Assembly: GCA_965216955.1 (NCBI GenBank)
Contig: CBDCGV010000018.1
Coordinates: 470,098-534,097 of the forward strand
Origin: Chitinophagales bacterium
GTDB lineage: Bacteria > Bacteroidota > Bacteroidia > Chitinophagales > JADIYW01
Direction: 5' to 3'
Length of the DNA stretch: 64,000 nt
Shown here: piece after piece, positions 4,581-28,371 of the stretch
How the letters are laid out: every line of letters begins with the position of its first letter
Numbering within the stretch: the stretch's first letter is position 1
The notes under the pieces: model-generated
The model's database searches: none
What the model was told of the DNA's origin: nothing
Seen by the model: the letters and a program-made list of their open reading frames with translations, nothing else
Made by a program: the position numbers and the translations under genes

Positions 4581-4606
4581 TAATCTTGTATTACTTACTT
4601 TATTGA

Positions 4607-5383: not shown

Positions 5384-5424
5384 TTAACGAAGTTAGTTTT
5401 TAGATACAAGAATCCAATATAAAG

Positions 5425-5444
5425 AAGAAACAATCTTGTTTCTT
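5425..5444 (-). promoter_or_regulatory. intercistronic inverted repeat (9+2+9) between the SBP and ATPase genes
   Basis: AAGAAACAA-tc-TTGTTTCTT with perfect arms. It lies in the 78-nt gap between the two cistrons and is followed on the mRNA strand by a U-rich stretch. Confidence 0.3.
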
Positions 5445-5461
5445 GAACAATAATTAATCCA

Positions 5462-6382
5462 TTACTTTAATCCCGAAGCTATGGTTTGAACATTATGTTT
5501 TATCATACCGATATATGTTCCTTCTTCCGTTCCAAACGCTCCCATCGCATCTGAAAACAGCTCCCCTCCAATTTTAACATCGTGTCCTTTTTGTTTACAA
5601 TCTTCGATGATCGCTTCTAACGGCTTTGAAGAAACAGATGATTCTATGAAAATAGCCTTTACCTTTTTTGAAATAATTAAATCAACTAACGCTTTTCTAT
5701 CCTGAACACCGAATTCTGCTGCTGTTGAGATTCCCTGCAAAGCATTTACACCTACACCAAATGATCTACCAAAATATTGAAACGCATCATGAGAAGTAAT
5801 TAAAAGTTTAGATTCTTCTTTAATGCTGTCGAGGCCTCCCTTTAAATTTTCATACACCTCTTCTATAGATGCCAAATAAGTCTTCTGATTTTCTTCAATT
5901 TCATCTTTCCATATTGGATATTTCCCAATCAGGTAATCTGCTAACCCAGAAATACAACTACTCCATAACTCTACATCAAACCAAATATGCGGATCTATTT
6001 CATCAACACCTTCTGATTGCATAGGCAATAGCTGATCTGTACTAACAACAGAACTAAAATTATAGACATTTTTCTTTCTTCCAAGTTTTTCCAAAATATC
6101 GGTCAACTTTCCTTCTAAAAACAATCCATTAAAAACAATTACATCAGATTGATTCATTTTTTTAAGATCTCCTTGAGTAGCCTTGTAATAATGAGGGTCT
6201 ACGCCAGGCCCCATTAGCATCACCGCTTCTACGTGCTCTCCAAGTAAATTGATCACCGCATCATTAATCATTCCGGTAGTAGACAAAACCATTGGTTTTT
6301 CTCGTTTAACTTTTTTGTTCGTATTGCAACTCATTATCATTGCGATGGATACAAAAAGAAGTAATACTTTTGCATGCTTCAT
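5462..6382 (-). CDS. metal ABC transporter substrate-binding lipoprotein (TroA/cluster-9 family)
   Basis: 306 aa. Lipobox IMSC. Family motifs DPHYY, DPHIWFD, TSHDAFQYF and LFSDAMG are present. There is no His-rich ZnuA loop. Confidence 0.85.
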   Translation of the reverse strand: MKHAKVLLLFVSIAMIMSCNTNKKVKREKPMVLSTTGMINDAVINLLGEHVEAVMLMGPGVDPHYYKATQGDLKKMNQSDVIVFNGLFLEGKLTDILEKLGRKKNVYNFSSVVSTDQLLPMQSEGVDEIDPHIWFDVELWSSCISGLADYLIGKYPIWKDEIEENQKTYLASIEEVYENLKGGLDSIKEESKLLITSHDAFQYFGRSFGVGVNALQGISTAAEFGVQDRKALVDLIISKKVKAIFIESSVSSKPLEAIIEDCKQKGHDVKIGGELFSDAMGAFGTEEGTYIGMIKHNVQTIASGLK

Positions 6383-11813: not shown

Positions 11814-11818
11814 TATCT

Positions 11819-12180
11819 ACAAGCCGCTCTATCGCTATCTATCAACTAGTTTGGTAGATAGAGGAAAGTCCGGGCAGCACAGAGCATCTTACCTCTTAAC
11901 AGGAGGTCACATATAAAAATGTGAAGAAAGTGCCACAGAAAATAACCGTCCCGATTTTTTCGGGATAAGGGTGAAAACGTGCGGTAAGAGCGCACGAATC
12001 ATTATGGTAACATATTGATTGGGTAAACCTTAGGAGCTGAAAGATCAAATAAACCAACTTAAGCGTTGCTCGCGCTCGTTGGAGGGTAGATCGCTAGAGC
12101 TTGATTGTGAGGTCAAGTCTAGATAAATGATAGAGGTCCGCCAGTTGGCGGATACAGAACCCGGCTTATAGGCTTGTTTT
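11819..12180 (+). ncRNA. rnpB: RNase P RNA, bacterial type A
   Basis: Universal P4 strands GAGGAAAGTCCGGGC (from ~11861) and ACAGAACCCGGCTTA (~12154). Conserved GGTGAAAACGTGCGGTAAGAGCGCAC core. 5' ACAAGCC pairs with 3' GGCTTGT (P1), followed by a T-run. Ends are approximate, within a few nt. Confidence 0.9.
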
Positions 12181-12278
12181 TTATTTCACAGTTTGTCAAA
12201 CCTGCCATATAGATAAAAGATCATTAACACATTTAAACTTTAATGGGGTTTTAAAGTCTAAAACTTCGGACATATTAT

Positions 12279-12308: not shown

Positions 12309-13673
12309 ATGCCTAAATTATTGATTGTTGATGATGAACAGAGTATTCGTAATACGCTTAAAGAAATTCTAGAATACGAAAAATTTGATGTTGACGAAGC
12401 TGCCGATGGAAAAGAAGGTTTAACCAAAATCCAAAAAGGTAATTACGATGTTGTCATACTCGATATTAAAATGCCAAAGATGGATGGTCTTGAAGTGCTG
12501 GAAGAAATAAATAAGAAGGGTATCGATGTTCCAATCATTATGTTATCGGGGCATGGAAATTTGGATACAGCAGTAGATGCCGTCAAAAAAGGTGCGTATG
12601 ATTATATTTCAAAACCGCCTGATTTAAACAGATTACTTATCACCATCCGAAATGCGATGGATAAGTCGTCATTGATTACCGAGACAAAAGTATTAAAACG
12701 GAAGGTAAGTAGAACCAGAGATATCATTGGGGAGTCTAATTCAATATTGAAAATTAAAGAAAATATTGAAAAAGTAGCGCCTACAGATGCAAGAGTGCTT
12801 GTTACTGGAGAAAACGGCTCAGGAAAAGAATTAGTTGCACGGTGGTTACATGAAAAAAGCAATCGGCATAATGGTCCCATTGTAGAAGTTAATTGTGCAG
12901 CTATACCATCAGAACTTATTGAAAGTGAATTGTTTGGACATGAAAAAGGTGCTTTCACATCAGCAATGAAACAACGCATTGGGAAATTTGAACAAGCCAA
13001 TGGAGGCACATTGTTTTTAGATGAAATTGGAGATATGAGTTTGTCTGCCCAAGCTAAAGTTTTGAGGGCTTTACAAGAAAATAAGATTACAAGAGTTGGC
13101 GGTGACAAAGAGATTAAAGTTGATGTACGTGTAGTGGCTGCTACCAATAAAGACTTGCTTCAAGAAATTGATGAGAAAAAGTTTAGAATGGATTTATATC
13201 ACAGATTAAGTGTAATATTAATTCATGTCCCTTCTTTAAATGATCGCAAAGATGACATTCCGCTTTTAGTCGATTTTTTCGGCGATGAGATTTGTGGAGA
13301 ATATGGAGTTCCCGTTAAGGAGTTTGAGCCAAAAGCTATAAAAGCACTCCAAAATAGAAACTGGACCGGAAATATAAGAGAATTAAGAAATATCGTTGAA
13401 AGACTAATCATTATGGGAAACAGCAAAGTTACATTTGAAGATGTACAGGCTTATTGTGGTCCTGATGGCAATGATAAAAATCTTGTATCCGGTACTGTAG
13501 ATTATAGTCGTTTTGGCAATTTCCAGCAATATAAAGATTATACCGAAAAGTGCTTTATAGAATATAAATTAGAGCAAAACGCTTGGAACATTTCAAAAAC
13601 AGCAGATGACTTAGAAATGCAGCGCAGCAATTTGTATCAAAAAATGGAAAAATACGGATTGAAGAAAAAATAG
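12309..13673 (+). CDS. sigma-54-dependent response regulator (NtrC/Fis family enhancer-binding protein)
   Basis: 454 aa. Receiver domain (LLIVDDE...ILDIKMPKMDG). AAA+ domain with Walker A GENGSGKE, GAFTSA loop and Walker B LFLDEIG. C-terminal Fis-type HTH (ISKTADDLEMQRSNLYQKMEKYGL). Confidence 0.9.
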   Translation: MPKLLIVDDEQSIRNTLKEILEYEKFDVDEAADGKEGLTKIQKGNYDVVILDIKMPKMDGLEVLEEINKKGIDVPIIMLSGHGNLDTAVDAVKKGAYDYISKPPDLNRLLITIRNAMDKSSLITETKVLKRKVSRTRDIIGESNSILKIKENIEKVAPTDARVLVTGENGSGKELVARWLHEKSNRHNGPIVEVNCAAIPSELIESELFGHEKGAFTSAMKQRIGKFEQANGGTLFLDEIGDMSLSAQAKVLRALQENKITRVGGDKEIKVDVRVVAATNKDLLQEIDEKKFRMDLYHRLSVILIHVPSLNDRKDDIPLLVDFFGDEICGEYGVPVKEFEPKAIKALQNRNWTGNIRELRNIVERLIIMGNSKVTFEDVQAYCGPDGNDKNLVSGTVDYSRFGNFQQYKDYTEKCFIEYKLEQNAWNISKTADDLEMQRSNLYQKMEKYGLKKK

Positions 13674-13715
13674 ATTACAATTATTGAACTAAACTTTTAA
13701 AAAACAATCTAATTT

Positions 13716-14648
13716 TTACGTTCTTCTTTCTACCTCAAATGTAAAACCTTCTAATGCAAGTGAAGTATTTGGAAAAATTTCTTGTGCTTCATTGAGTAAT
13801 TCATTTAGATCGTAATATTTACTGGAAAAATGACCAATAATCAATTCTCTAACATTGGCCATTTGGGCAATAGTGGCAGCTTGAGAGGAAGTACTATGAT
13901 ACGTTTGCTTGGCTCTTTCCAAGGCGTTATGCTGAAAAGTTGATTCGTGATATAATAAATCAATCTCCTTGATTATAGGCACTAACTCTTCATCATAAAT
14001 AGTATCGGAACAATAAGCATAAGATCTAGGTTTATAAGGATCAATAGTTAAATCGTTATTAGCAAAAGAACGTCCATTAACATCAATATCTTCCCCGTTT
14101 TTAAGCTTCTTATAATGATCTGAATTCAATTCTAATTCTAAGTTCTGTAGCACTTCTTTATTTATCCTTCTACCGTCTTGTTTCTCTTTAAATAAGAATC
14201 CCGTAGTAGGAATTCTATGCTTTAACGGAAAGCTATACACCTCCATGTTATCATCTTCATAGATCCTATTTACGCCAGTATTATCCGTAAAATGAAAAAT
14301 AAGATTATAATTTAAGCTAACAGAATTACCCCCTGCTGCTAATTGTAACTCTATGATAGATTTCAATTCCTTTGGACCATAAATATTCAGTGGCTTCTCT
14401 CTACCTAGTAGATGATAGGAAGTAATGATACCAATTAAGCCAAAATAATGATCTCCATGTAAATGACTTATAAAAACATGGTCTATTTTGAAAGGTTTAA
14501 TACTATAATGCACCATTTGCATTTGTGTCCCCTCTCCACAATCAACCAAAAAGACCCTGTTTCTAATCGACACTATTTGCGCAGATGGGTGACGCCCATG
14601 CGCTGGTAGCGCAGAATTGCTCCCCAGTATTTGAACCTCAAATTTCAA
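13716..14648 (-). CDS. rnz: ribonuclease Z
   Basis: 310 aa metallo-beta-lactamase fold. ISHLHGDHYFGL and an N-terminal GSNSALP...R.PSA.. motif are typical of the short RNase Z. Confidence 0.85.
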   Translation of the reverse strand: MKFEVQILGSNSALPAHGRHPSAQIVSIRNRVFLVDCGEGTQMQMVHYSIKPFKIDHVFISHLHGDHYFGLIGIITSYHLLGREKPLNIYGPKELKSIIELQLAAGGNSVSLNYNLIFHFTDNTGVNRIYEDDNMEVYSFPLKHRIPTTGFLFKEKQDGRRINKEVLQNLELELNSDHYKKLKNGEDIDVNGRSFANNDLTIDPYKPRSYAYCSDTIYDEELVPIIKEIDLLYHESTFQHNALERAKQTYHSTSSQAATIAQMANVRELIIGHFSSKYYDLNELLNEAQEIFPNTSLALEGFTFEVERRT

Positions 14649-14649
14649 A

Positions 14650-15024
14650 CTATCCCTTCAAATCACGCTCAAGTTCCTCCATCATAACAAAATCCCTCCC
14701 CTCTTGCACTGTAGGAAAAATGTTCAAAATACCTTCCAATTGAGATATCTTAATTAAACTTTGAACAGGCTCCTTTAAAGAAGACAATACAAAAGTTCCC
14801 CCAGCATCTTTACATAATCGGTTACCAACCAATAACGCACTTAATCCTGACGAATCTATAAATTCGACCATCGAAAGATCTATAATTAAATTTTTATAAC
14901 CTTCTGTATTTAAGAAAATTAGCTCTGATTTTAATTCCGGAGCATTCACAGAATTCAATTTATCTTGTTGTACTTCAAATACAACATAAGTATCTTGTTT
15001 GTCAATACTGAATTTCATATTCAA
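14650..15024 (-). CDS. STAS-domain protein (anti-sigma-factor-antagonist-like)
   Basis: 124 aa. The DLSMVEFIDSSGLSALL motif includes the conserved Ser. Its stop is 1 nt before the rnz start. Confidence 0.8.
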   Translation of the reverse strand: MNMKFSIDKQDTYVVFEVQQDKLNSVNAPELKSELIFLNTEGYKNLIIDLSMVEFIDSSGLSALLVGNRLCKDAGGTFVLSSLKEPVQSLIKISQLEGILNIFPTVQEGRDFVMMEELERDLKG

Positions 15025-15249
15025 TTTATTTGTTTCAAAAATAACACTAATACATCAATAAACAATTGTGCCAAAAAAATAAAAACATGTTTGCCAAACA
15101 AAATATATATTGTAAAGACAATTTGACCATTTTTAACGTTAATTAAGGAACAGTTGAAAACTTTTGGCGGTTATTGTAAGTGCAATTATTATTTTCATGG
15201 AAAATGTGTCATAAAAAAAGGATGGCAGATTTTTTGATTAATAAAAGAT

Positions 15250-17790
15250 ATGGATTCAAAATTTTCTTCAAAAGTCAAAGAGGTAATTTCTTACAGTAGA
15301 GAAGAAGCCTTAAGATTAAGTCACGATAAGATTGGCATCGAACATCTGTTGCTCGGATTAATCCGAGAAGGTGATGGACTGGCCATTAAAGTGCTCAAAT
15401 CATTAGATATTGATATTGTTTTACTAAGAAATAAGATAGAAGATTCTATCAGAGACAATATAAATGCTATTCCTTCTAATTCTAATAGTCTTCCGCTCAC
15501 TAAGCAAGCAGAAAAAGTATTAAAAATTACACTTTTAGAAGCAAAGTACCATAAAAGTGATACGGTTGATACGGAGCATCTTATGTTGTCGATTCTCAAA
15601 AATAAAGACAATGTAGCTACAAGACTTTTAAATAGAATGGATGTAAACTATGAAATCTTCAGGTCTGAATTAGATTATGTAAAACAAGAAATCAGTGGTG
15701 AATTTCCTCAAGAACATCCTGAAGGAGATTTTGAAGAAGAACCTCGTGCCTCAAAGAGTTACAGTTCAAGAAAAGGTGCTTCTAAATCAAAAACTCCAGT
15801 ACTTGATAATTTTGGACGAGATATTACTAGACTGGCCGAAGAAGAAAAATTAGATCCTATTGTAGGAAGAGAGACGGAAATTGAGCGTGTTTCTCAGATT
15901 CTTAGTAGAAGAAAGAAAAACAACCCAATTCTTATTGGTGAACCTGGTGTAGGTAAAACAGCTATTGTTGAGGGACTTGCGCTCAGAATTATTCAAAAAC
16001 GAGTTTCCAGAGTACTTTTCAATAAGCGAATTGTAATGCTAGATTTAGCGGCATTAGTGGCTGGAACAAAATATAGAGGACAATTTGAAGAGCGCATGAA
16101 AGCGATCATGACGGAGCTTGAAAAGAATAGAGACGTTATACTATTTATTGATGAAATACACACTATAGTTGGTGCTGGAGGTGCAACTGGGTCTTTGGAT
16201 GCCTCTAACATTTTCAAGCCTGCTTTAGCGAGAGGGGAACTTCAATGCATTGGAGCATCTACTTTAGATGAGTATAGGCAGCATATCGAAAAAGATGGTG
16301 CGCTAGAACGCAGGTTCCAAAAGGTAATTATTGACCCTCCTTCTACGGAAGAGACAATGACCATTCTACACAATATTAAAAACAAATATGAAGACTTTCA
16401 TAATGTCAACTATACAGATGATGCTATCGAAGCATGTGTAAAATTAAGCAATCGCTATATTACAGATCGTTTTTTACCAGACAAAGCCATTGATGTAATG
16501 GATGAAGTAGGTGCACGTGTGCACTTAAAAAATATTCATGTTCCTGAAAATATCGCTAAGCTAGAAGAAGAAATTGAGGCTATCAAGGAAAAGAAAAACC
16601 AAGTAGTTAAAAATCAACGATACGAAGAAGCTGCTGAACTAAGAGATCAGGAAAAAAAGCTATTAGACAAATTAGATCAAGCTAAAATTGCCTGGGAAGA
16701 GGAAGCCAAAGCAAAAAAATATCCTGTAGATGAAGAAGACATTGCTGAAGTTGTAGCAATGATGACCGGCATTCCAGTAAATAGAATTGCTCAAAGTGAG
16801 AGCAAACGACTTCTCGAAATGGGTAAAGACTTAAAAGACTCTGTTATTGGGCAAGATGAAGCTGTAGGAAAAATAGTAAAGGCTATCCAAAGGAATAGAG
16901 TCGGGCTTAAAGATCCTAAAAAGCCTATTGGATCGTTTATTTTCTTGGGCCCTACCGGTGTAGGAAAAACTGAATTGGCCAAAGCGCTATCGCGCTATAT
17001 GTTTGACTCTGAAGATACTTTAGTTAGAATTGATATGAGTGAATACATGGAAAAATTCTCTGTTTCAAGATTAATTGGAGCACCTCCGGGTTACATCGGT
17101 TATGAAGAAGGTGGGCAACTAACAGAAAAAGTTAGAAGAAAGCCTTATTCTGTTATATTGTTAGACGAGATTGAGAAAGCACATCCAGATGTATATAATA
17201 TTTTATTACAGGTACTGGATGATGGTCAACTAACAGACGGATTGGGTAGAAAGGTAGATTTTAAAAATACCATTATTATTATGACCAGTAATATTGGGGT
17301 TCGTCAGTTAAAAGATTTTGGAGCAGGAGTAGGTTTTACCACTTCAGCCAAGAAAGACAGTATGGATACCTATACTAAAGGGGTTATTGAAAAAGCATTA
17401 TCCAAAACTTTTTCTCCGGAATTCTTAAACAGAGTAGATGATGTAGTCATCTTCAATTCTTTAGACAGAGAACATATTCACCAAATTATTGATATAGCAC
17501 TCAAAGATGTATTTAAGCGTTTAGACGATATGCAATTAACGGTTGAATTGTCGGATAAGGCAAAAGACTTTATCGCTGATAAAGGTTTTGATCCCAAATA
17601 TGGCGCAAGGCCATTGCACAGAGCTATTCAAAAATATTTAGAGGATCCTTTGGCAGAAGAAATTTTATCTTCCAGCGTTAAAGAAGGTGATACCATTGCT
17701 GTGAGTGTTAATGAAAAAGAAGAGGATGATTCTAAAAAGCTTAAATTTTCTGTAAAGAAGAAAAGAAAGAAGAAACAAGAACAGGAGTAA
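15250..17790 (+). CDS. clpC: ATP-dependent Clp protease ATP-binding subunit ClpC (class I Hsp100)
   Basis: 846 aa. Two Clp_N repeats, two AAA+ modules (GEPGVGKT and GPTGVGKT), a UVR-like middle segment ([14 protein letters not shown]) and a short M-domain. This is ClpC-type rather than ClpB-type. Confidence 0.9.
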
Positions 17791-17821
17791 TGAATGTCCT
17801 TATTTCATAAGGGCGTTCATT
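17789..17821. terminator. candidate stem-loop at the clpC / caspase-gene convergent junction
   Basis: AATGAATGTCCTT-atttcat-AAGGGCGTTCATT forms a 13-bp stem on the plus-strand RNA (two G-U pairs). It overlaps both stop codons. No clear U-tract follows. Confidence 0.3.
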
Positions 17822-20800
17822 TCGTTGTATATTTCTGAAATTAAGTTATCCATTTTATTCTCACTTCCAGAGAGTTCTATTTCTCCTACACTTTCTTTAT
17901 TTTGAAATAGTCTAGCTTTTAATTTTATTGCTCCTTCATCATTAATGGTGTACCTACCTTTAATAGAATATGCTTGAGGGTAATTATTTACATCTACAAA
18001 AATAAGTGATGCTTTCTCTCCTTTTGCAGAAGTCTCATTAAGTTTTTGATCAAGCATCGCTCCAATAGATAAGATATCTTCATAAGCGAATTCCTCTTGA
18101 AAAACCGAGCGGATAAACACGGGTTTAATGTCTGCTAATTCAATGGTCACTTTATCATCTACTTTTCCAATATAAAAGCTATTCCCTCCTTTTGGAACAG
18201 CTAAAATAGGCTCCTGCACTCCCCCTATATGAGTTGCTAAACTCGGTACTCTATCTACTGAATATTGAAACAATTGCATCACATCTACAAAATGTAACTC
18301 TCTAAGTGCTGCTCCTTTAATTCCTGCTAACAAACTGTATGTCAACAAACTCTGTCCAAAGCTACTCGCCTCATAACTAACTTTATTTTCTGCACTTCCG
18401 GTTAAAACAAACATTCCTGTTCTATCCTTTAGTCTTTCCAAAGCTCTAATCTGGCTAGAACTAACGGCTTTCTCTCCATGCAAAATATCGTCAATTGCTT
18501 TGCCTGAATTACAAGCATCTATAATAAGTACCTGCTTTTGTGCTTTGATATCATTGATCCATTGAGTTAACTCATCTGTAGAAATTGCATAGTTTTTTCT
18601 TATCGTTGGATCTGACAAATCTCCACTCTCTACATCTTTTGTCAGGTAATAAAAAGACGAATGCTCTCCTCCATAGCTAACGCCATGTCCTGACAAATAA
18701 ACGACAATAACATCATTCGATTTTGCCTTATTCATTACTTCTTCAAATGTCCTTATGATATTCTCCTTACTTGAAAGCGCCTTGCCCCCCCCATTACTTA
18801 CAAGCGTTTTTATGTAAACTCTATCTAGACCAAATAAATTTTCTCCACTTTGTTGAAGCGCATTACTAAATTGCAAGGCATCTTTATCAGCATATTTTAA
18901 ATCTAATTGATCTCCTCTATAATCCGCTGAACCAATTACAATAGCATATAAACTAGGCAGCGAAGATTTTAAGCCAAAGCCATTAGGCTTTGTATTTTGT
19001 TTCTTATCATTATCATAGTCATAGATATAGTTTAGACCCACTCTCCCACTATGTAGATTCTCAGCTTCGTTATAGGCAATAACTGCAATTTTGTTTTTAC
19101 CACTTAAAAAATAGTCTTTATAATGATTCAAATCAATTGCAATACTACCCTCCTGAATAAAACTAGATACATCCGAAACGACTTCCTTATCATTGATAAA
19201 TAATGGTACTCGACCAATGCCTCCACCTCTTTCTTTTAAAAGGATCTTTAATTCATCTACCTCAATTTCAAGATTTACTATAGGATAAAGTTGAAGTGCT
19301 CCAAGGGCTTCTACATCTCTTATAGCTTCTGTATTATAGCCCAGCAATTTTTGAAGTAGCCCAGGTTCATAGTAGCGTTCTTTCAATTGATACAAATCAA
19401 TAACCTCTTTACCTTTAAAAGAAAAGTGCAGTTGGTCAATATTTCCGCCATTTGATGCATCATACCTTCCTGCACTATCTATTACTGCCCAGTCCCCATT
19501 ATCATAAGCATAAATTTCTGCCACAGGGACAAAATCTCGGGCATTCCAAAGTATCATTTTCCCATCCCAAGAAAAGCTAATCATAAATTTCCCATCTTTA
19601 GAAAATCGCAATCCATTTACTAAATTCCCATGTTTTAAATAAGATTTAAGCACCTCTTTTTTTGAAACATCCAATAAAGCGACACTTCCATCATCATAAC
19701 CCACTACCAATTTCTGACTATTAGGAACGAATTGAACACTCTGAACATAGCTTCCTAAAGGAGCAAGTTTCCAGTGCCAACGATCATTTTTTAAATCATA
19801 AACAAACAAAGTGTCGTTATATCCACCAGTTGCAACAAATTGATCATCAGAATAGAAAGAAATATCTTGCAAAGAACTTCCTCCATCACCCTTAGGGTTA
19901 TGTATCATCAAAGTTTTTCCAGAATCAGGTGCAGTAACAAAAAATGCTTTATAAACTGTCCAGGCAATATAGTTTTTCTCATTGCTAAACTTAATGTTTT
20001 CTACACTTTGGCCCAGACTGAAACGCTCTATTAACTGATTACTTGTTTTCGTATAAATGAAAACAGAATCATCGTGTGAAACAGCAAACAAATTTGTGCT
20101 ATCACTATTGGAATAATTTAAATCGTTAAATTCATTATCAGGAAATTTTATACTCTCTTTCTCAAAAGGACTTTGTACATCACATGTCATTAATATGCTA
20201 TCCTCACCAACTGTGGCTAATCTTCTTCCATCAGGACTAAAATCAAATTGCTTAATTCTTGAATTGTGTGCATTAAGATGCTCCACTTTTCCCTGCTTTA
20301 AATTCCAATAAATTAATCCTTCTTCCCCTCCATTAAAACAAATGGTTGCATCATTTTGCGGTTGAAACTCTAAATCGTCAATCCATCTACTGCCTTTAAT
20401 TCTAAAATCCTCCTTTAATTCACTATTATAACAGGCAATATCTCTAGATGCCATGTAAATTTTTTCTCCGTTAGAATTTACTGATATCAAGTTTGACAAA
20501 TAAGGACTAACCTTTATTTTTTTTATCGTTTTTCTACCCTCAAAATCATACACCACCATAAAAGTGTCTGACTCAAAAAAATACAATAGATCGTTATTAG
20601 AAGTCGCCTTATCTACTCCACTCCCATTCATTTTAAACAGATTTTTTCTCTGTTTAAAATCCCTTACAATTAGTTCATTACTCCCCCATTTAAAATTTTC
20701 TAGAACAACGATCTCTTCGTTTATAAATACCGCATTAACAATATCTAATTCAGACTTAATTTCATCTATTAAAATACTATCCTGAATATCCCAAAGCTGA

Positions 20801-21369
20801 TAATTTCCTTCATCAGTAAAATCCTTAGTTGCCATTAATAAATACCGGTCACTAGGAGAAAAAGCCAACGCCGAAACCGTCTGCTTAGGGGTAATTTTAA
20901 ACATCTTTTCAACGCTCCATTTTTTAGAATTGTAAACATAAACTTCCCCCTTGGTATTTCCTCCAGCAATATAATTATGCTTGTTTCCACGTGCCAATGA
21001 TATGCAAGCATTAGGAAAATGAAAATTGTATGCTTTCCAATCTTCTAGTGCATACCCTAACAAAGAAGGCCCATCTATACCATAGCTTCCAGACAGTAGA
21101 TATTTAGAATCTTTAGTAAATACTAAATCATATGGGCTGTCTTTACTATATAATTGCTTTAATAGTCTTCCTGAATGCGCATCCCATACTTTAATGAGGT
21201 TGTCAATGCCTCCTGAAGCCAGATAGCGTCCATCTTCACTTAATGCAATGGCATTGATTTGATTAGTATGTCCATTTTGCAATACAATTTCTAGATCACT
21301 ACTGCTAAATCCTTTTGTGATTGAAAAGAAAAGATATGATATAAATGCGTATTTTAGTAAATGGCACAT
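17800..21369 (-). CDS. exported WD40-repeat protein with C-terminal caspase-like (peptidase C14) domain
   Basis: 1189 aa. N-terminal signal-like segment MCHLLKYAFISYLFFSITKGFSS. Clear WD40 blades include GHTNQINAIALSEDGRYLASGGIDNLIKVWD, IKQFDFSPDGRRLATVGEDSIL and VNGLRFSKDGKFMISFSWDGKMILWN. The caspase catalytic dyad context is VVYLSGHGV (His, codon 18685-18687) and LIIDACNSGKA (Cys, codon 18511-18513). Confidence 0.85.
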   Translation of the reverse strand: MCHLLKYAFISYLFFSITKGFSSSDLEIVLQNGHTNQINAIALSEDGRYLASGGIDNLIKVWDAHSGRLLKQLYSKDSPYDLVFTKDSKYLLSGSYGIDGPSLLGYALEDWKAYNFHFPNACISLARGNKHNYIAGGNTKGEVYVYNSKKWSVEKMFKITPKQTVSALAFSPSDRYLLMATKDFTDEGNYQLWDIQDSILIDEIKSELDIVNAVFINEEIVVLENFKWGSNELIVRDFKQRKNLFKMNGSGVDKATSNNDLLYFFESDTFMVVYDFEGRKTIKKIKVSPYLSNLISVNSNGEKIYMASRDIACYNSELKEDFRIKGSRWIDDLEFQPQNDATICFNGGEEGLIYWNLKQGKVEHLNAHNSRIKQFDFSPDGRRLATVGEDSILMTCDVQSPFEKESIKFPDNEFNDLNYSNSDSTNLFAVSHDDSVFIYTKTSNQLIERFSLGQSVENIKFSNEKNYIAWTVYKAFFVTAPDSGKTLMIHNPKGDGGSSLQDISFYSDDQFVATGGYNDTLFVYDLKNDRWHWKLAPLGSYVQSVQFVPNSQKLVVGYDDGSVALLDVSKKEVLKSYLKHGNLVNGLRFSKDGKFMISFSWDGKMILWNARDFVPVAEIYAYDNGDWAVIDSAGRYDASNGGNIDQLHFSFKGKEVIDLYQLKERYYEPGLLQKLLGYNTEAIRDVEALGALQLYPIVNLEIEVDELKILLKERGGGIGRVPLFINDKEVVSDVSSFIQEGSIAIDLNHYKDYFLSGKNKIAVIAYNEAENLHSGRVGLNYIYDYDNDKKQNTKPNGFGLKSSLPSLYAIVIGSADYRGDQLDLKYADKDALQFSNALQQSGENLFGLDRVYIKTLVSNGGGKALSSKENIIRTFEEVMNKAKSNDVIVVYLSGHGVSYGGEHSSFYYLTKDVESGDLSDPTIRKNYAISTDELTQWINDIKAQKQVLIIDACNSGKAIDDILHGEKAVSSSQIRALERLKDRTGMFVLTGSAENKVSYEASSFGQSLLTYSLLAGIKGAALRELHFVDVMQLFQYSVDRVPSLATHIGGVQEPILAVPKGGNSFYIGKVDDKVTIELADIKPVFIRSVFQEEFAYEDILSIGAMLDQKLNETSAKGEKASLIFVDVNNYPQAYSIKGRYTINDEGAIKLKARLFQNKESVGEIELSGSENKMDNLISEIYNEMNALMK
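18280..18951 (-). other. caspase/C14 catalytic domain of the WD40-caspase protein (approximate bounds)
   Basis: LYAIVIGSADY...YLSGHG...IIDACNSG...FVLTGSAENKVSYE. By my count the dyad residues are His895 and Cys953. Confidence 0.75.
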
Positions 21370-21439
21370 TATTTGAACTTGTAGCTAATATTAAATTTTA
21401 TTTCAATATTTGTGCCATGCTAATTTAAACTTAAAAGTT

Positions 21440-24400
21440 ATGAAAACGAATTTAATCACTGCAACTTTAGCATTCCTGTTTTTGATACAAATATCTTCTG
21501 CACAAAGGACAGGACTTTTATTCAATGATGAAGCATATAAAAAAGTACCATTAGTCGATAAAGCCACTTTAGGCTGGACAGCTACCGACTTGCCCAGCAG
21601 TACCTCGTTAAAATCCTATGCCCCTATTCCGGGAAATCAGGGTGACTATGGTACTTGTGTAGGCTGGTCAACGGCATATGCAGCACTAACCATTGTACAT
21701 GCAAAAAAATACAAGTTAACTGATAAAGAACAAATAACTGCCTCTGCATTCTGCCCCTATTATCTATACGATCAATTTAAAGGAGAATACGATTTATTTT
21801 GTCAAACAGGTGGTTTTTTTGAAGATGCGCTAGATGTGCTTTATAAAAAAGGAGCCAAAAAATATTACTTACCTGAATTTTCATGTTATTCAAGTGCTAC
21901 TTCACATCCTGATGAAATTGCAAAAAACTTCCGCATCGACAACTATTTCAGACTTTTTGACTTTGAACAAACTCAAAATACAGAAACAGGATATTTAGTA
22001 GAAAAAATCACAAATGTTAAGTCCGCTCTTGCAGACGGTAATCCGGTTTTATTTGGGATGTTTGTTCCTAACTCTTTTATTAACTTATTAGGTGATGACA
22101 ATTGGACTCCGACATATAGTGAAAAACTAAACTACAACCAACAAGCAGGTCATGCTATGGTTATTGTTGGGTATGATAATTACAAGTATGGTGGTGCATT
22201 TCAAATTATGAATAGCTGGGGTACTGAATGGGGGAAAGATGGTTTTGCATGGATAAAATATGATGACTTTAAGAAATTTGTACATACAGCATTTTATTTT
22301 GAAATTGACAATAGTTACACCCCTTCTTCTGGATGTTTATTAGGAGATTGCTCCAACTCCTATAGCCGCTACAAATGGCCCAACGGAGAAACTTATGAAG
22401 GAGAAATGGTAGATGGATATTTGACAGGTTCTGGCATTTACTACTGGAACAATGGAGAAGTTCATGTTGGAGAATGGAAAAATGGGAAAAGACATGGTGA
22501 AGGAATCAGTACTTCAGCATATGGATACATTACTAGAGGTTTTTGGAAGGATGATGTTTATGTAGGCAAAGAAGAACCCGATTATACAGATTACACCACT
22601 ATTGTTGAGACTAAAGAGGAGGAAGAAAAAAAGGAAACGGAAGAAGAAAAAGAAGTTGAAACCGATTGGAACAGCATTTTTAACGACATTATTGATGGTG
22701 AAACAGAAATAAAAGATGATATAGCTAACGGATGTATAAGTGGAGACTGTGATAATGGATATGGAAAATTTATTTACTCAGATGGAGATATTTATGAAGG
22801 CTATTTTAAAAGCAGTTATAGAAACGGTTTTGGCAAATATCAATATATAGAAGGTGATGTATATACTGGAGAATGGTCGTGGAATACAAGGTCGGGGTTA
22901 GGGCATTATGTTTGGCCTAGCGGAAACATTTATATTGGGTATTGGAAAAACAACTCCCAACATGGCAAAGGCACCAAGTTTCATAAAGATGGTACCACAA
23001 ATGCAGGGGAATGGGAAAATGGCACCTTCAAGGATCCCAATAATACATTTGGGTTTGCCGGCAATAAAAAAGATATAGAAAAGACTCAAAACAGTTATAG
23101 TAGAGGTATTCATATGCCAGAAGCTGAAGAGTATAAGAGCAACGTGAAAGCCAGTCCTATCCTAAAACAAAATGGATTTGGAATCCCCAAGGGTGGATTA
23201 GAACAAAAAATGAATAGTGATTACAACACCGTTAAACGAGTAGTTACACATATTTTAAAGGCATCTGGAAGATCGGATTTAAGAAATCCTCCTATTAAAA
23301 TTATAGATGATCCTAACGAAGTTGCATTTATCCATCCCAAAACAGGAATTAATGTAAGCCATAAGTTTTTGGAAGTTTGTAAAAGTTTTGGGAAAGATGC
23401 AGAAACAGCATTGGCCTTTGTTTTAGCACATGAATTAGGTCATTATATTAATGACCATTTTTTTTCTTTTGAATACGGTTCTGCCTATGCAAGCACTGAA
23501 TGGGGGCAACAAATGAAAAAAGCCTATATGCCTATTAAGGATATGGGATACTATGAATCTCAAGCGGATGAATTTGGCCTATTTGTAAGCTATACAGCTG
23601 GTTACAATACATTAGAAATTGGCCCTCAGGTAATCGACCGTATATATGAAGCATTTAGTCTTCCCGAAGAACTCCCAGGTTATCCCCCTAAATCTTTCCG
23701 AAAGGATCAGATAGAAATTGCTAAAAAAAAAGTCCAAGACTTAATTCCGGTATTTGAAGCGGGAAATATTCTTAGTCTTTTAAGTGGTGCTGCTATTGGT
23801 AATGAAAAAATGGAAGTAACAAAAGCAGCCATTAGTTGTTATGACCACATTATACAAAGTAAAATCACTACCGCAGAGATGTACAATAATATTGGTATCA
23901 ATTATCTGCACATGGCCTTAACTGAAAAAGCAGATGAAATTAAGTTGGCATTCCCTATAGAAATAGACTTCAAAAGCAGATTATATATTAAATCCGTAAC
24001 AGGAAGCGGTAAAGGCCCAGGAGATCCTGATTTAGGCTGGGGAGATGATGAAGATACCGAAGAACCAGACCCTGATGCCCTTTTTAAAGAATATCTTTAC
24101 CAAGCAGAAGCTTTTTTAGACAAAGCACTTTCTATAGATAAAAATTATTTACCCGCAAATAACAATAAGGTTATCGTGGCTATTTTAAGTCAAGATCTTG
24201 ACGAAGCGGAGTATCTTGCAAAAAAAGCGGCTAAAAAAGCCAAGCAATTTCAAAGCAAAATTGACGAAAGAAATGCCCACGATTTATTATACATCATTTA
24301 CATGCTTAACGATGATACAGAAACTGCCTTAAAATATTACAATCTAGCTACAGCTATGAATAGCCCTTATACTGTATTTAATGAGAAGAAAATTAAAAAT

Positions 24401-24907
24401 CCAAAGTACAACCCACAATCTGAAATAGATAACAGTAATGCACAGGGTCTCGCAGATGTAAAATTTGCTGTTGATCCAAGAGATTATCAACGTCCTTTTG
24501 ATAATGACCAAGAAAAAATAAATGGAATGACGTTATGGGATATTACTAATCAATATATTTATGATGGTAAAGACATACAAACATGGAACGTTGGCAACGA
24601 CAACAAAGCACAAATTGGAAAAGACATTATAGATGATGGAGAGCTGGTTATTTTCCTACGACTTGATAGAGGTCAGTTCAACGGAGCCTATTCATTTTAT
24701 CAAGTGGACAACACTTTTACAGGTAATACGATGAAAGACATAAAAGTTGGGAATAACAGTGAACAGGTCGTTACTGCTTACAATAATCCACATCACGTTG
24801 TATCCTCAACACAACATGACTACTGGGTATATATAAAAAACAACATCATATTCAAAATTGATCAAAAAGACCAAGTTGATGGATGGATATATTATGACAT
24901 CAATTAA
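21440..24907 (+). CDS. exported mosaic protease: papain-like C1 peptidase + MORN array + MORN array + HExxH zincin (M48/BepA-like) + TPR-like helices + C-terminal beta-rich domain
   Basis: 1155 aa from the ATG at 21440; the track's TTG at 21410 is rejected. Signal peptide MKTNLITATLAFLFLIQISSAQ. C1 triad context NQGDYGTCVGWS (Cys codon 21656-21658), GHAMVIVGYD and MNSWGTEWGKDGF. MORN repeats (YEGEMVDGYLTGSG, HVGEWKNGKRHGEG, YTGEWSWNTRSGLG, YIGYWKNNSQHGKG). AHELGH at 23429-23443 with a downstream YYESQADEFG. Confidence 0.8.
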   Translation: MKTNLITATLAFLFLIQISSAQRTGLLFNDEAYKKVPLVDKATLGWTATDLPSSTSLKSYAPIPGNQGDYGTCVGWSTAYAALTIVHAKKYKLTDKEQITASAFCPYYLYDQFKGEYDLFCQTGGFFEDALDVLYKKGAKKYYLPEFSCYSSATSHPDEIAKNFRIDNYFRLFDFEQTQNTETGYLVEKITNVKSALADGNPVLFGMFVPNSFINLLGDDNWTPTYSEKLNYNQQAGHAMVIVGYDNYKYGGAFQIMNSWGTEWGKDGFAWIKYDDFKKFVHTAFYFEIDNSYTPSSGCLLGDCSNSYSRYKWPNGETYEGEMVDGYLTGSGIYYWNNGEVHVGEWKNGKRHGEGISTSAYGYITRGFWKDDVYVGKEEPDYTDYTTIVETKEEEEKKETEEEKEVETDWNSIFNDIIDGETEIKDDIANGCISGDCDNGYGKFIYSDGDIYEGYFKSSYRNGFGKYQYIEGDVYTGEWSWNTRSGLGHYVWPSGNIYIGYWKNNSQHGKGTKFHKDGTTNAGEWENGTFKDPNNTFGFAGNKKDIEKTQNSYSRGIHMPEAEEYKSNVKASPILKQNGFGIPKGGLEQKMNSDYNTVKRVVTHILKASGRSDLRNPPIKIIDDPNEVAFIHPKTGINVSHKFLEVCKSFGKDAETALAFVLAHELGHYINDHFFSFEYGSAYASTEWGQQMKKAYMPIKDMGYYESQADEFGLFVSYTAGYNTLEIGPQVIDRIYEAFSLPEELPGYPPKSFRKDQIEIAKKKVQDLIPVFEAGNILSLLSGAAIGNEKMEVTKAAISCYDHIIQSKITTAEMYNNIGINYLHMALTEKADEIKLAFPIEIDFKSRLYIKSVTGSGKGPGDPDLGWGDDEDTEEPDPDALFKEYLYQAEAFLDKALSIDKNYLPANNNKVIVAILSQDLDEAEYLAKKAAKKAKQFQSKIDERNAHDLLYIIYMLNDDTETALKYYNLATAMNSPYTVFNEKKIKNPKYNPQSEIDNSNAQGLADVKFAVDPRDYQRPFDNDQEKINGMTLWDITNQYIYDGKDIQTWNVGNDNKAQIGKDIIDDGELVIFLRLDRGQFNGAYSFYQVDNTFTGNTMKDIKVGNNSEQVVTAYNNPHHVVSSTQHDYWVYIKNNIIFKIDQKDQVDGWIYYDIN
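21587..22294 (+). other. papain-like (C1) peptidase domain
   Basis: Gln/Cys (NQGDYGTCVGWS), His (QQAGHAMVIVGY) and Asn-Ser-Trp (IMNSWGTEWG) occur in canonical order and spacing. Confidence 0.8.
22331..22570 (+). repeat. MORN repeat array 1 (protein-level repeats), opened by a GC-x2-GDC-x-N-x-Y motif
   Basis: GCLLGDCSNSYSRYKWPNGETYEGEMVDGYLTGSGIYYWNNGEVHVGEWKNGKRHGEG...FWKDDVYVGK. Confidence 0.75.
22730..23029 (+). repeat. MORN repeat array 2, opened by the same Cys motif
   Basis: GCISGDCDNGYGKFIYSDGDIYEGYFKSSYRNGFGKYQYIEGDVYTGEWSWNTRSGLGHYVWPSGNIYIGYWKNNSQHGKGTKFHKDGTTNAGEWENGTF. Confidence 0.75.
23237..23629 (+). other. zincin metallopeptidase-like domain (HExxH ... ExxADxxG)
   Basis: LAFVLAHELGHYINDH is followed 38 residues after the second His by YYESQADEFGLF, the pattern seen in M48-type peptidases. 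Confidence 0.6.
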
Positions 24908-24917
24908 ACCATTTACC

Positions 24918-26432
24918 ATGAAAACAACAATTTTCGCTTTCTTCATACTTCTTGGAACCTTCAAAATAAGTAGTGCTCAAGATTTTGTTATAGAGTATGA
25001 TTTTTTAAATAAAACCACAAAATATTTTAAAATAAGCAAGAAGGGAGATACTACCGAAACTACAAAACCAATAGCAAAACAAAATCAGGATATTCAACTA
25101 AAGGTCATCAATTACAATGAGTTTGCTTTGGTAACGGAGGCAGACATAACGAATGAAGAGATAATTGAGTCTTCCAACCCTTTTAGTATGTTTGGAGCAC
25201 TCTCCCCTATTTTTAATACCGTGTCAAAAAGTGTATTATCAGGAATGTTCGATGGAACCGGTGCTGATGTAGATGACATTGACTTTGGATTTGGTTATAG
25301 TTCAAAAGGCAACAATGATGAACGTCTCAAAGCTGCGTTAAAACAATATGCACTTCTTAGTTCAAAAATGAATGAATTAGATGCATTAGAAGATGCGATA
25401 CAATCTATTAATTATGCCATAGGTCGTGTCAAAAAGATCGTTTACAATCCAAATGCTAATCCAAATGATATCAAAGGTCAAACGAAAAGTATTGTTCGTG
25501 ATGTTTTAAATAATGGAGACAAGCTTACCTACATTAATTTTCAAAGAAAATACAACACATTAACTTCCAGAATGAGCGAACTTAGTCGAGCTGCTAAACA
25601 AAATGGCAATAGAGTACTTGCCTATGAAGAGCATGAAGATGCAAATTTAGGTTTTAGTTCTAAAGAAAGTGCGCTCACCTATGAAGAGGTAAGTGCAGAA
25701 ACAGAAGAGATGCTAAAACTTATCGAAGAATTTGAAAACGCTTATACTTCTGAAGAATTACAAGAAAAATTAGATGAACTCCAAGAATTATATGATGCAG
25801 TAAATACTTCAAATTTCACTTATACAACAAGTGCGACTGCCGAAGGAGATCGAACAAACATTAATGTCTCCTTCTATGAACACCTTCCTGATGGAGTTGA
25901 CAAGGGGAAACTTAGCAACTCTCTTAAAAGTAATAATAAAGGAGATGAAGACGAGAATTTTTTGAGAAGCGAATCTTTTAAAGTCCGAGTTAAAGGTGGT
26001 CTTAAAATCGTCCCTAGTGTTGGTTTAACTTTCCCCACCTACTTTAACCAAAACAAAGAGTTTTATACTATTGGCGACACGCTAATTGCTCAAACAGGAG
26101 GAGATAATTTTGTTCCAAATATTACTGCTATGATTAATTTCTATCCTTACACAGGTAGAGCAATAAATTTTGGAGGTAGTTTCGGGATTGGCATTCCAGT
26201 AAAAGCAGAAAAATTCGCCCCACAGTATATGATGGGTGGAGCATTGGTATTAGGTCAAAAATATCGAATTATTTTAAGTGCTGGTATGTCTGTCGGTCCG
26301 GTTACAACTTTAAGACCCGGATATGAAGTAGGAGAAAATATCAGTGCCTTTGATGATTTGGAGACTGACTCCAAGTATAAAGTTGGATTTTATTCAGGCA
26401 TCTCCTTTACATTGGGTGTAGGTAGTGAATAA
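24918..26432 (+). CDS. hypothetical exported protein with coiled-coil middle and beta-barrel-like C-terminal third
   Basis: 504 aa from the ATG at 24918 (10 nt after the upstream stop); the track start at 24858 would overlap the upstream gene. Signal peptide MKTTIFAFFILLGTFKISSAQ. The centre is helical and Glu/Lys/Leu-rich. The C-terminus has alternating-hydrophobic strands ending KVGFYSGISFTLGVGSE. Confidence 0.6.
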   Translation: MKTTIFAFFILLGTFKISSAQDFVIEYDFLNKTTKYFKISKKGDTTETTKPIAKQNQDIQLKVINYNEFALVTEADITNEEIIESSNPFSMFGALSPIFNTVSKSVLSGMFDGTGADVDDIDFGFGYSSKGNNDERLKAALKQYALLSSKMNELDALEDAIQSINYAIGRVKKIVYNPNANPNDIKGQTKSIVRDVLNNGDKLTYINFQRKYNTLTSRMSELSRAAKQNGNRVLAYEEHEDANLGFSSKESALTYEEVSAETEEMLKLIEEFENAYTSEELQEKLDELQELYDAVNTSNFTYTTSATAEGDRTNINVSFYEHLPDGVDKGKLSNSLKSNNKGDEDENFLRSESFKVRVKGGLKIVPSVGLTFPTYFNQNKEFYTIGDTLIAQTGGDNFVPNITAMINFYPYTGRAINFGGSFGIGIPVKAEKFAPQYMMGGALVLGQKYRIILSAGMSVGPVTTLRPGYEVGENISAFDDLETDSKYKVGFYSGISFTLGVGSE

Positions 26433-26446: not shown

Positions 26447-27115
26447 ATGGTTTCAAACCTTAAATTCATTTTATTTCTTTTACTAATTATTTCATTTCAA
26501 GCATTTTCTCAGGAAAAAAGAGAAAAAGATGGTGCTTTCAAAAATTATAATGATACGACAGAAATAGCTATTCCAAATTTTAAGATTCACAAGGGATTCT
26601 ATAAAACTTTTGATGATTTAAAAAATGGAAAAGTAATGTCTGGTATTGATTTCAGTGTCAAAAGACAATTAGGTACAACTGAAGTACTTTTAAAATTTGA
26701 AAAAAAGAGTGACGCAAATATAATCAGGAAAGATACTTTCTACGCTGTATCTGATGGACACAGTCTTTATGTTAACCCTATCATTGCCGACAAATTGAAC
26801 CACGCATTTACAGTCAATAAATTTTACACTGTTAATTACATTGGCAGATATATTTATTATGAAATAAAGGGTGTTGTTATTGGACTATTGAGTGCTATTG
26901 CAAGTAACAATGGTGCATACGTAGTAAATATTAATGGTAAAAAAGGCATTAGCTACGCACTAAATAGAGAAACGATACTTAAAATCATTGGCTCAGATAA
27001 ACAACTAAAAAATGAAGTGCTTGGAAAAAAAAGAATCGCATTAAAAGAGTGTAAGGAAATTTTAAAAAGATATTGCGAAAAAAACGTAAAAGAAATTAGA
27101 GAAATAGCTAAATAA
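26447..27115 (+). CDS. hypothetical exported protein
   Basis: 222 aa, 14 nt after the upstream stop. Signal peptide MVSNLKFILFLLLIISFQAFSQ. No recognisable motif. Confidence 0.55.
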   Translation: MVSNLKFILFLLLIISFQAFSQEKREKDGAFKNYNDTTEIAIPNFKIHKGFYKTFDDLKNGKVMSGIDFSVKRQLGTTEVLLKFEKKSDANIIRKDTFYAVSDGHSLYVNPIIADKLNHAFTVNKFYTVNYIGRYIYYEIKGVVIGLLSAIASNNGAYVVNINGKKGISYALNRETILKIIGSDKQLKNEVLGKKRIALKECKEILKRYCEKNVKEIREIAK

Positions 27116-27159: not shown

Positions 27160-28371
27160 ATGACAAAATTTATAATTACATCTATAATTGGTTGTTTAGT
27201 ATTTCTTTCATGCAGCAAAGATGAAAACCAAACAAACGATCCTCAAGAGGAGGTTTTCGAAATTGACGATTACAATTATAAAACGGATATTCCCGATATG
27301 ATTGACTTCTATGAACAAGATCCTATTCAATACTATGCAGAATTTGGACTTCCAAGTATTACTAAGTCTGCATCGATTCTAAATGAATATGGAGATAACC
27401 CAATAGACGCTTTTGATTTATTACTTGCCTACTTCAGTGATAGCATGGCTCAAAAAGCAATAAACGATCAACTTTGGAGTAGAGCATTTATTCAAAAAAT
27501 GCAAAACGCAAGTGGAAATCTAGCAGAAAAATGGACTCATACAATAATACATTTCGGAAATCAGGTAAACCAACTATATATCCAAAATCCAGATGATCCT
27601 CAATTAGACCAACTGTATAAAATCTTAGGCGATGGAATACAACTTGTCATGCCAAATGAGTTTTTTATAGATATGATGATGATTGAAGATATTTCTCTAT
27701 ATGAATTTCCTATTACTAATGATTGGTTAGCTTTGACTTGTGGCTGCGGAATGGATGATGATGATGAAATAATAGAATGCGATGAAGAAGAAGTAGACAC
27801 CTTTGATCAAGAACCCAATGAAGTGAGAAAATGGAGTGAAGTAGACGAACCATTTATACCCCCACATAGATTTGATGGCAAATGTGCTACACTTGCTGCC
27901 GGTAACTGTCTGGTAAAACTAAAACAAATAGAAGATAAGATAGATATAGATATCTGGAAAGATTTATCAAAAAAATTGGGTGCCAAAAAAAGAGGCGGTG
28001 TTGATAGAAGAGCCACCAATGCTTATTTTAAATCACTCGGATTTGGTGTAACAGTTGCTGCAGATAAAAAAGGTGAAACTGCTGTTCAACAAGCAGCTAA
28101 GGCTATGGCTAAAGGATGTGATGTCAAGCTTTCTTTTGCAAACAAAGCCAAAAAAAAATATCATGTTGAATACGTTACTGATATTAAGGTCGATAAAGAT
28201 GACCCTAGTAAGGCGGTAATTACCTCTATCTCATGGGGCGTCAAATCAACACAAGACGTAAAAAATGGAAAGTTTACTAATAAGGAACCCAATAAAACAA
28301 GAAATGAGAATAGTTGGTTGTCGCAAGAAGGTGACGCTATTATTAGAATATTTTGCCCTGTAAAAAAATAA
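27160..28371 (+). CDS. hypothetical lipoprotein with acidic Cys-containing linker and C-terminal candidate Cys/His (papain-fold-like) domain
   Basis: 403 aa from the ATG at 27160. Lipobox VFLSCSKDENQ. Linker CGCGMDDDDEIIECDEEEVD. The C-terminal domain has GKCATLAAGNCLVKL (Cys at a predicted helix start) and KKYHVEYVTDIKVDKDDP (His then Asp). Confidence 0.55.
   Translation: MTKFIITSIIGCLVFLSCSKDENQTNDPQEEVFEIDDYNYKTDIPDMIDFYEQDPIQYYAEFGLPSITKSASILNEYGDNPIDAFDLLLAYFSDSMAQKAINDQLWSRAFIQKMQNASGNLAEKWTHTIIHFGNQVNQLYIQNPDDPQLDQLYKILGDGIQLVMPNEFFIDMMMIEDISLYEFPITNDWLALTCGCGMDDDDEIIECDEEEVDTFDQEPNEVRKWSEVDEPFIPPHRFDGKCATLAAGNCLVKLKQIEDKIDIDIWKDLSKKLGAKKRGGVDRRATNAYFKSLGFGVTVAADKKGETAVQQAAKAMAKGCDVKLSFANKAKKKYHVEYVTDIKVDKDDPSKAVITSISWGVKSTQDVKNGKFTNKEPNKTRNENSWLSQEGDAIIRIFCPVKK

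Follow-up and report, generated by a model that had tools for sequence, protein, structure and literature searches.

The window analysed here is a stretch of 64,000 nucleotides, with a GC (guanine plus cytosine) content of about 34%, from a Chitinophagales bacterium (assembly GCA_965216955.1, contig CBDCGV010000018.1, positions 470,098 to 534,097 of the forward strand). On its minus strand, at 17800..21369, lies a single open reading frame (ORF) of 3.6 kb and 1189 amino acids (aa), which starts at an ATG, the first possible start past the upstream stop, and encodes a protein with WD40 propellers, a caspase-like Peptidase C14 domain and a hydrophobic N-terminus. Judging from its leader and those of its relatives, the protein is almost certainly exported from the cytoplasm. 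Its gene is divergent, across a 70-bp spacer, from a two-gene operon encoding partner B and then partner C. The nearest relatives of the locus were found in metagenome-assembled genomes of Bacteroidota/Chitinophagales. Chance origin of the WD40-caspase ORF is excluded, because a 3.6-kb frame in DNA of 34% GC with the Pfam E-values given below cannot be a chance pattern. The features of the locus, in window positions, are the following.

17800..21369, minus strand: whole gene, 1189 aa, with 14 WD40 blades, linker, Ig-like domain, C14 domain (orthocaspase type) and TolB-N-like domain, predicted exported (ORF, Pfam, AlphaFold2 model)
21298..21369, minus strand: predicted signal peptide, aa 1-24, MCHLLKYAFISYLFFSITKGFSSS (low-confidence N-terminal helix in the model, alignment with orthologue leaders, family leaders)
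20416..21297, minus strand: first seven-bladed WD40 propeller, aa 25-318 (Pfam, model, orthologue alignment)
19504..20415, minus strand: second seven-bladed WD40 propeller, aa 319-622 (Pfam, model, fold matches)
19285..19503, minus strand: family-specific linker, aa 623-695, DWAVID..GRYDAS...LKERYYEPGLL (alignments, model)
19015..19284, minus strand: putative Ig-like beta-sandwich, aa 696-785, RGGGIGRV...INDKEV (secondary structure of the model)
18196..18963, minus strand: Peptidase C14 domain, metacaspase/orthocaspase type, aa 803-1058 (Pfam, model, profile matches)
18685-18687, minus strand: codon of His895 (VVYLSGHG motif)
18511-18513, minus strand: codon of Cys953 (LIIDACNSG motif)
18469-18471, minus strand: codon of Lys967, candidate autoprocessing site closing the disordered loop 955-967 (model, alignment)
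17803..18174, minus strand: C-terminal alpha/beta domain, aa 1066-1189, with the predicted fold of the TolB N-terminal domain (separate model, fold matches)
21370..21439, no strand: divergent intergenic region of 70 bp, common to the caspase gene and the partner operon (64-101 bp in all orthologous loci)
21440..24907, plus strand: partner B, 1155 aa, with signal peptide, papain-like C1 domain, MORN repeats, M48-type HExxH motif, TPR repeats and a small C-terminal domain
24918..26432, plus strand: partner C, 504 aa, with signal peptide, N-terminal domain, helical region, hypervariable acidic linker, basic motif LRSESFKV and a C-terminal beta-rich domain ending in a motif like that of outer-membrane proteins (GFYSGISFTLGVG)

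The protease and its accessory domains

An earlier note, made by reading the letters of this DNA, had described a caspase domain with the catalytic contexts VVYLSGHG and LIIDACNSG, and both contexts were found intact. The Pfam family Peptidase_C14 (PF00656) matched aa 808-1054 with an E-value of 9e-17 and 62 bits (cut-off 21.4), over profile positions 3-221 of 233. We modelled the full protein with AlphaFold2 from a 32-sequence alignment of full-length relatives (mean predicted local distance difference test score, pLDDT, 83; predicted template modelling score, pTM, 0.77). The model contained a caspase alpha/beta domain at aa 803-1058, whose only disordered loop (955-967) lies directly past the catalytic Cys. 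When a profile of the protease domain built from 17 relatives was compared with solved structures, it matched metacaspases and GSU0716 only (AtMC4, 6w8s, 1.8e-13; Yca1; TbMCA2; AtMC9; GSU0716). His895 and Cys953 aligned with the catalytic dyad of AtMC4, Asp830 with the Asp of the metacaspase CxxD motif, and Asp951 with the Asp two residues ahead of the catalytic Cys. These four residues were invariant in 6 orthologues and nearly invariant across the wider family. The degenerate fold lacking a dyad, which the note had kept in mind, does not apply, and the caspase-like protease is apparently real and intact. It scored 72 bits against NCBIfam NF047832 (caspase, EACC1-associated type), below the cut-off of 140. 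The dyad was retained in all other family members compared but one, P0016, in which both catalytic residues are gone (SGRC for SGHG, DAHNSG for DACNSG); this pseudo-protease has the same exported-type architecture.

In TbMCA2, Asp95 and Asp211 are two of the four residues assigned to the S1 pocket, and metacaspases take Arg or Lys at P1 (PMC4357240). Asp830 and Asp951 are the equivalents of these two residues and, together with the profile matches, place the domain in the C14B metacaspase/orthocaspase type. Because they match the acidic S1 residues of TbMCA2, we predict that the enzyme cleaves after Arg or Lys rather than after Asp. Processing of caspase-family enzymes takes place between the large and the small subunit, at a position that corresponds to the Lys967 loop. 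Because it occupies this position, Lys967 is a candidate autoprocessing site; its alignment column holds R or K in 23 of 32 homologues.

The N-terminal half of the protein gave a WD40 match (PF00400) of 122 bits (cut-off 27), and many further beta-propeller models of Pfam matched across aa ~32-630. At least five blades over residues ~30-650, in one or two propellers, had been proposed before; the model brings this to 14, since its 57 strands at aa 26-621 form 14 four-stranded blades and a closing strand, that is, two seven-bladed propellers (aa 25-622). Membership of the WD40 propellers is thus borne out by closure of both rings in the predicted structure. A relative, P0005, has 14 canonical WD40 repeats across the same span. 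With the propeller part as query, the top Foldseek matches in the PDB were tandem WD40 propellers, including Utp/Pwp2, 2ymu and Apaf-1 (3sfz, 3shf). The propellers share 21-32% identity with those of orthologues, as against 57-65% for the protease domain, and the first propeller (21-27%) is the fastest-evolving part of the protein.

The segment between propellers and protease had been read as a single linker or beta-domain of ~150 aa. The beta-domain stands, but the single segment has to be divided into a conserved linker of 70 aa (aa 623-695), 56-63% identical in orthologues and with P669 invariant in 32 of 32 aligned homologues, and a seven-strand sandwich (aa 696-785) that we call Ig-like from its secondary structure in the model. 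Pfam had no match to the linker, to the Ig-like stretch or to the C-terminal domain. The last of these is shorter than the ~180 aa of unassigned fold given earlier, because the caspase domain extends to about aa 1058. The remaining ~125 aa (aa 1066-1189) are arranged as beta-alpha-beta-beta-beta-alpha in the model. When this domain was modelled alone (pLDDT 88.5), its best structural matches were TolB N-terminal domains (template modelling score, TM, 0.53-0.61; E ~6e-5), followed by PqiC, PelC and the periplasmic domain of CadC, and more weakly by LptE, all of them envelope proteins. The resemblance to TolB concerns the fold of the small domain alone; the protein does not belong to the TolB family, which is defined by sequence-level homology and by a TolB-type propeller together with the N-terminal domain. 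Every residue of the model falls to the propellers, the linker, the Ig-like domain, the caspase domain or the C-terminal domain, and no NTPase family was present among the 25 Pfam matches listed, so that the protein is not of the STAND/NLR type.

Signal peptide and compartment of a large protein family

The hydrophobic N-terminus, which the earlier note had taken to suggest export, has the n-h-c layout of a signal peptide (MCHLLK / YAFISYLFFSIT / KGFSSS), with cleavage by signal peptidase I predicted around S22-S24/D25. In the model, aa 1-24 form a helix of low pLDDT. The leader aligns column for column with those of the six gene-cluster orthologues, which are canonical signal peptides (such as MRTLIFLLFLTFVGELKAQ/Q, the slash marking cleavage) and finish with AQ directly ahead of the LVVQxGH strand of blade 1. 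A true start further downstream, raised as a reservation in the note, is implausible because the next in-frame Met, M156, lies within the propeller, and because the sole nearer alternative start, a TTG at L30, would remove the first strand.

The note had proposed a survey of the same architecture. A search with aa 623-1189 returned 17,592 cluster representatives (clusters of 50% identity) at E<=1e-3, and 1541 passed the stricter limit of E<=1e-30. In the best 150 (all E<1e-122) the query was matched over its full length, at the C-terminus of proteins of mostly 1000-1400 aa, which databases label 'caspase family protein' or 'WD40 repeat protein'; by its sequence the window protein is an ordinary member of this very large family. 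In the same profile-free search, 115 of the 139 best representatives of at least 950 aa had a hydrophobic leader, and most of the leaderless exceptions start inside or right at the first blade, resembling truncated gene calls. In our first homology search, a leader was present on all proteins that end in a caspase domain (with a lipobox in P0002), and the WD40 relatives with kinase or STAND NTPase domains in place of the caspase had no such leader. From these alignments the signal peptide is shown to be a trait of the WD40-caspase family. No other domain is fused to bacterial caspase homologues as often as WD40, which 10.9% of these homologues carry (Asplund-Samuelsson et al. 2012, PMC3501461), and the same survey remarked on N-terminal helices as possible signal peptides. 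We found no paper on this architecture, its export or its function in the literature searched, which was incomplete.

We also considered that the protein might be a cytoplasmic programmed-death or defence caspase whose N-terminus is an uncleaved anchor or an artefact, as in the NACHT/WD40 metacaspases. WD40-metacaspase fusions have mostly been discussed as cytoplasmic signalling proteins (PMC3501461), and the leader of the window protein is only moderately hydrophobic. This explanation is very improbable, and the signal-peptide data largely exclude it: the position of the leader is conserved and its form canonical in orthologues, both partner proteins have signal peptides, no part of the model is left over for an NTPase domain, and the C-terminal domain has an envelope-type fold.

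No T9SS (type IX secretion system) C-terminal domain was matched by Pfam or NCBIfam on the C-terminus, which is alpha/beta and TolB-N-like rather than a beta-sandwich, and the caspase protein of the window has no lipobox. Because both are missing, we take the periplasm as the default location, with which the TolB-N-like fold agrees. The earlier proposal of a periplasmic or surface caspase-like protease has thus gained ground, since the signal peptides of both neighbouring proteins, together with that fold, further support a location outside the cytoplasm. On the surface, or secreted, the protein could act with its papain/M48 neighbour as a nutritional protease digesting external proteins, like the gingipains of Porphyromonas. 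The Bacteroidota lineage would fit, as would the description of both neighbours as exported proteases and a T9SS-tagged M36 peptidase adjoining one orthologous locus; extracellular protein degradation by bacterial metacaspases has been suggested, speculatively (PMC4933709), and gingipains are exported Arg/Lys proteases of clan CD (PMC4357240). We nevertheless consider a nutritional role unlikely: the protein has neither of the two surface signals, its C-terminal domain has the fold of periplasmic proteins, and two large propellers and strictly conserved partners would be unusual for a bulk digestive enzyme.

The partner operon and neighbouring genes

Partner B begins with a papain-like C1 domain in which Q67, C73, H238 and N258 are invariant. 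Its M48-TPR half gave a Pfam match to M48 (30.7 bits, cut-off 20.3), with H664, E665 and H668 of the HExxH motif invariant. We considered a BepA-like reading of this half, for which the M48 match and a sub-threshold match to BamE (E 0.037) are the only support, and abandoned it, as no M48 structure appeared among the 60 solved-structure matches listed. A protein of a public collection, P0121, is 100% identical to partner B, and the caspase protein itself is not in that collection; in the public record the caspase gene may have been missed by gene calling or may differ. Many Bacteroidia proteins of 760-1150 aa (P0140, P0144-P0184) pair MORN repeats with Peptidase_C14. This MORN module, common to the papain-bearing neighbour and to C14 proteins, seems to swap between C1 and C14 proteases.

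Partner C, the window member of a family of ~505-aa proteins, matched no known family. Over its last ~150 residues it is beta-rich, and it closes with the conserved motif GFY(S/T)GISFT(L/I)G(V/I)G, whose resemblance to an outer-membrane beta-signal suggests that the protein is probably anchored in the outer membrane. The family also has a conserved basic motif (LRSESFKV in the window) after the hypervariable acidic linker and just before the beta-rich domain; speculatively, such a motif would suit an Arg/Lys-specific protease.

The three genes were found together, identically arranged, in 8 of 8 loci (the window, L001, L005, L006, L007, L010, L011 and L012, of which L006 is cut by a contig end), the count comprising every recovered locus that encodes a C1-MORN protein or a protein closely related to the 505-aa protein. 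The divergent spacer measures 64-101 bp across these loci. Orthologues of the caspase protein are 38-41% identical to it, those of the C1-MORN protein 48-52% and those of the 505-aa protein 42-46%, and the genes outside the cluster vary from locus to locus. Together with the metacaspase/orthocaspase type and the size of the family, this conserved three-gene module is what the analysis adds to the earlier note.

Relatives that share only 25-27% identity with the 505-aa protein, found in marine metagenomes, have other neighbours. In L015, L017 and L018, a 658-aa Peptidase_C14 protein with a signal peptide is encoded 10-20 bp downstream; the gene after it encodes another exported C14 protein in L015 and an exported TPR-CHAT protein in L017. 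In L020 a C14 gene lies 4 kb away. Because the gene arrangements are unrelated, this recurrence speaks for a functional link of the 505-aa family to exported caspase-fold proteases, beyond inherited synteny alone.

These arrangements also bear on a role in conflict or stress sensing outside the cytoplasm, in which the propellers would detect an invader or damage and the protease would then cut the 505-aa protein and/or activate the papain-M48 zymogen, as a periplasmic counterpart of caspase-gasdermin systems. Such a role would agree with the much faster evolution of the propellers (21-32% identity versus 57-65% for the protease), with the association of the 505-aa family with exported C14/CHAT proteases in independent arrangements, with the conserved basic motif directly past a hypervariable acidic linker, and with the activation of bacterial gasdermins by C14 and CHAT proteases fused to WD40, TPR or LRR modules (bioRxiv 10.1101/2021.06.07.447441). 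It is quite unlikely all the same. Defence-island neighbours and a gasdermin are missing, and the WD40 blades are old, degenerate copies and not products of a recent amplification. PADLOC gave the caspase protein a generic caspase-domain match and a weak HEAT-ARM repeat match only, and found no gasdermin among the neighbours, every one of which carries a signal peptide; the locus is not a gasdermin-protease system by this search. A more specific version is a long shot: the propellers would sense an envelope cue, the protease would cut the ~505-aa protein at LR/K-x-K/E-S-F-K-V and/or mature the papain-MORN-M48 protein, and the outer membrane would be remodelled or permeabilised. If this were true, the system would be a periplasmic analogue of the caspase-gasdermin axis, and the 505-aa family a previously unrecognised caspase-associated partner recurring with exported C14 and CHAT proteases.

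Several other observations concern the surroundings. The partner operon continues, at intervals of 8-44 bp, with genes for a 222-aa protein with a signal peptide (26447-27115, plus strand) and a 403-aa lipoprotein with an LSC lipobox (27160-28371, plus strand). Neither has a family match or is kept in the orthologous loci, which have ORFs of 106-109 aa and 81-98 aa at that position, then a GT2 gene. Directly downstream of the caspase gene, two Chitinophagales genomes encode a 629-aa paralogue of the M48-TPR-C-terminal half only of the C1-MORN protein (37% identity to its aa 567-1154; L005 4484-6373 and L007 ~4477-6285, both minus strand). L011 has a second, distant WD40-caspase paralogue of 1182 aa (17192-20740, minus strand; ~21-22% identity) at 6 kb from the three-gene cluster. 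In the spacers of L001, L005, L007, L010 and L012, a conserved AATAATGCCAAA-like leader closely precedes the C1-MORN start, and the caspase start is adjoined by an ATTGGTAyArTTATTGA-like element; the window spacer is more diverged. Motif comparison of the intergenic spacers revealed no clear operator, the likeness being limited to orthologous spacers.

On the other side of the caspase gene, 12309-17790 encodes a sigma-54 response regulator, a metallo-beta-lactamase-fold protein, a STAS protein and a ClpB/ClpC-type AAA+ chaperone, whose gene is convergent with the caspase gene; no gene of this block is kept beside caspase orthologues. A bacterial class A RNase P RNA (11816-12184, plus strand; 261 bits) lies 6 kb from the caspase gene, which therefore has a chromosomal context.

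Proposed role and comparison with known systems

The explanation that we favour, with confidence a little better than even, is that the protein is an Arg/Lys-specific cysteine protease of orthocaspase type, located in the envelope as part of an extracytoplasmic three-gene proteolytic module. It would be exported through Sec to the cell envelope, most likely the periplasm, and lose its signal peptide. The two WD40 propellers would serve as a platform binding a substrate or a partner, and the rigid conserved linker and the Ig-like domain would join them to the protease. Maturation would probably involve self-cleavage of the disordered loop at Lys967. The His895/Cys953 dyad and the acidic S1 pocket (Asp830, Asp951) would direct cleavage after Arg or Lys, and the TolB-N-like domain may dock the enzyme onto an envelope partner. 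In this putative cascade of three proteins the caspase would be one arm, the others being the exported papain-MORN-M48 double protease and the exported ~505-aa protein, which, if anchored in the outer membrane as is probable, may be an anchor or a substrate.

Several points weigh against this proposal. The window leader is the least hydrophobic of the set, its 10-residue Kyte-Doolittle maximum being 2.0 versus 2.3-3.4 in most relatives, and the choice between periplasm and surface is decided solely by the missing T9SS C-terminal domain and lipobox. The C-terminal domain resembles TolB-N only at the level of the fold (~10% identity). The lineages with a full three-gene cluster are all related and Bacteroidota/Chitinophagales-like, and inherited synteny could therefore account for some of the linkage. 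Finally, more distant WD40-caspase members (L002, L003, L013) have no partner genes, and the three-gene module therefore marks a subclade.

To our knowledge, bacterial caspase homologues have usually been treated as cytoplasmic enzymes of cell death or defence, and substrates are known for almost none of them. Here, one of the largest WD40-caspase architectures (>1500 sequence clusters) appears to be built for export, its metacaspase-type pocket predicts cleavage after Arg/Lys, and one subclade has named candidate partners, namely a papain-MORN-M48 protease and a small family that travels with other exported caspase-fold proteases. This narrows the substrate question to a short list of candidates within reach of simple biochemistry. 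The interest lies in the likely export of the whole family and in the conserved partner set, not in a single protein. New here are the divergent pairing with an exported C1-MORN-M48-TPR gene and a ~505-aa gene, and the presence of 505-aa relatives beside other exported C14/CHAT proteases.

Prokaryotic orthocaspases and metacaspases (C14B) share with the window protein the p20-type fold, the His-Cys dyad and the acidic S1 residues. In the WD40-fused orthocaspases described so far, which are regarded as cytoplasmic, the domains run caspase-(NACHT)-WD40 (PMC3501461), whereas the window protein runs from a signal peptide through 14 WD40 blades and the Ig-like domain to the caspase and TolB-N-like domains, has no NTPase and comes with a set of partner genes. 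The C14/CHAT proteases of gasdermin systems likewise combine a caspase-fold protease with a WD40, TPR or LRR module and are encoded beside their presumed target; those systems, however, are cytoplasmic and target a gasdermin, which PADLOC did not find here, and every component of the present module has a signal peptide. Apaf-1 of the apoptosome also couples tandem WD40 propellers to caspase activity, but its blades number 7+8, it carries a NOD ATPase, and its caspase is a separate protein recruited in the cytosol; the window protein is a single chain, predicted to be exported and without ATPase. The gingipains RgpB and Kgp of Porphyromonas (clan CD) resemble it as exported caspase-fold Arg/Lys cysteine proteases of Bacteroidota with an adjacent Ig-like domain; they differ by belonging to family C25, by their T9SS C-terminal domain and N-terminal prodomain, and by having no propellers. 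TolB, which is periplasmic, pairs the same small alpha/beta domain with a beta-propeller, as the window protein does, but the likeness is at the fold level only: in TolB the domain is N-terminal, the single propeller is six-bladed and of TolB type, and there is no protease.

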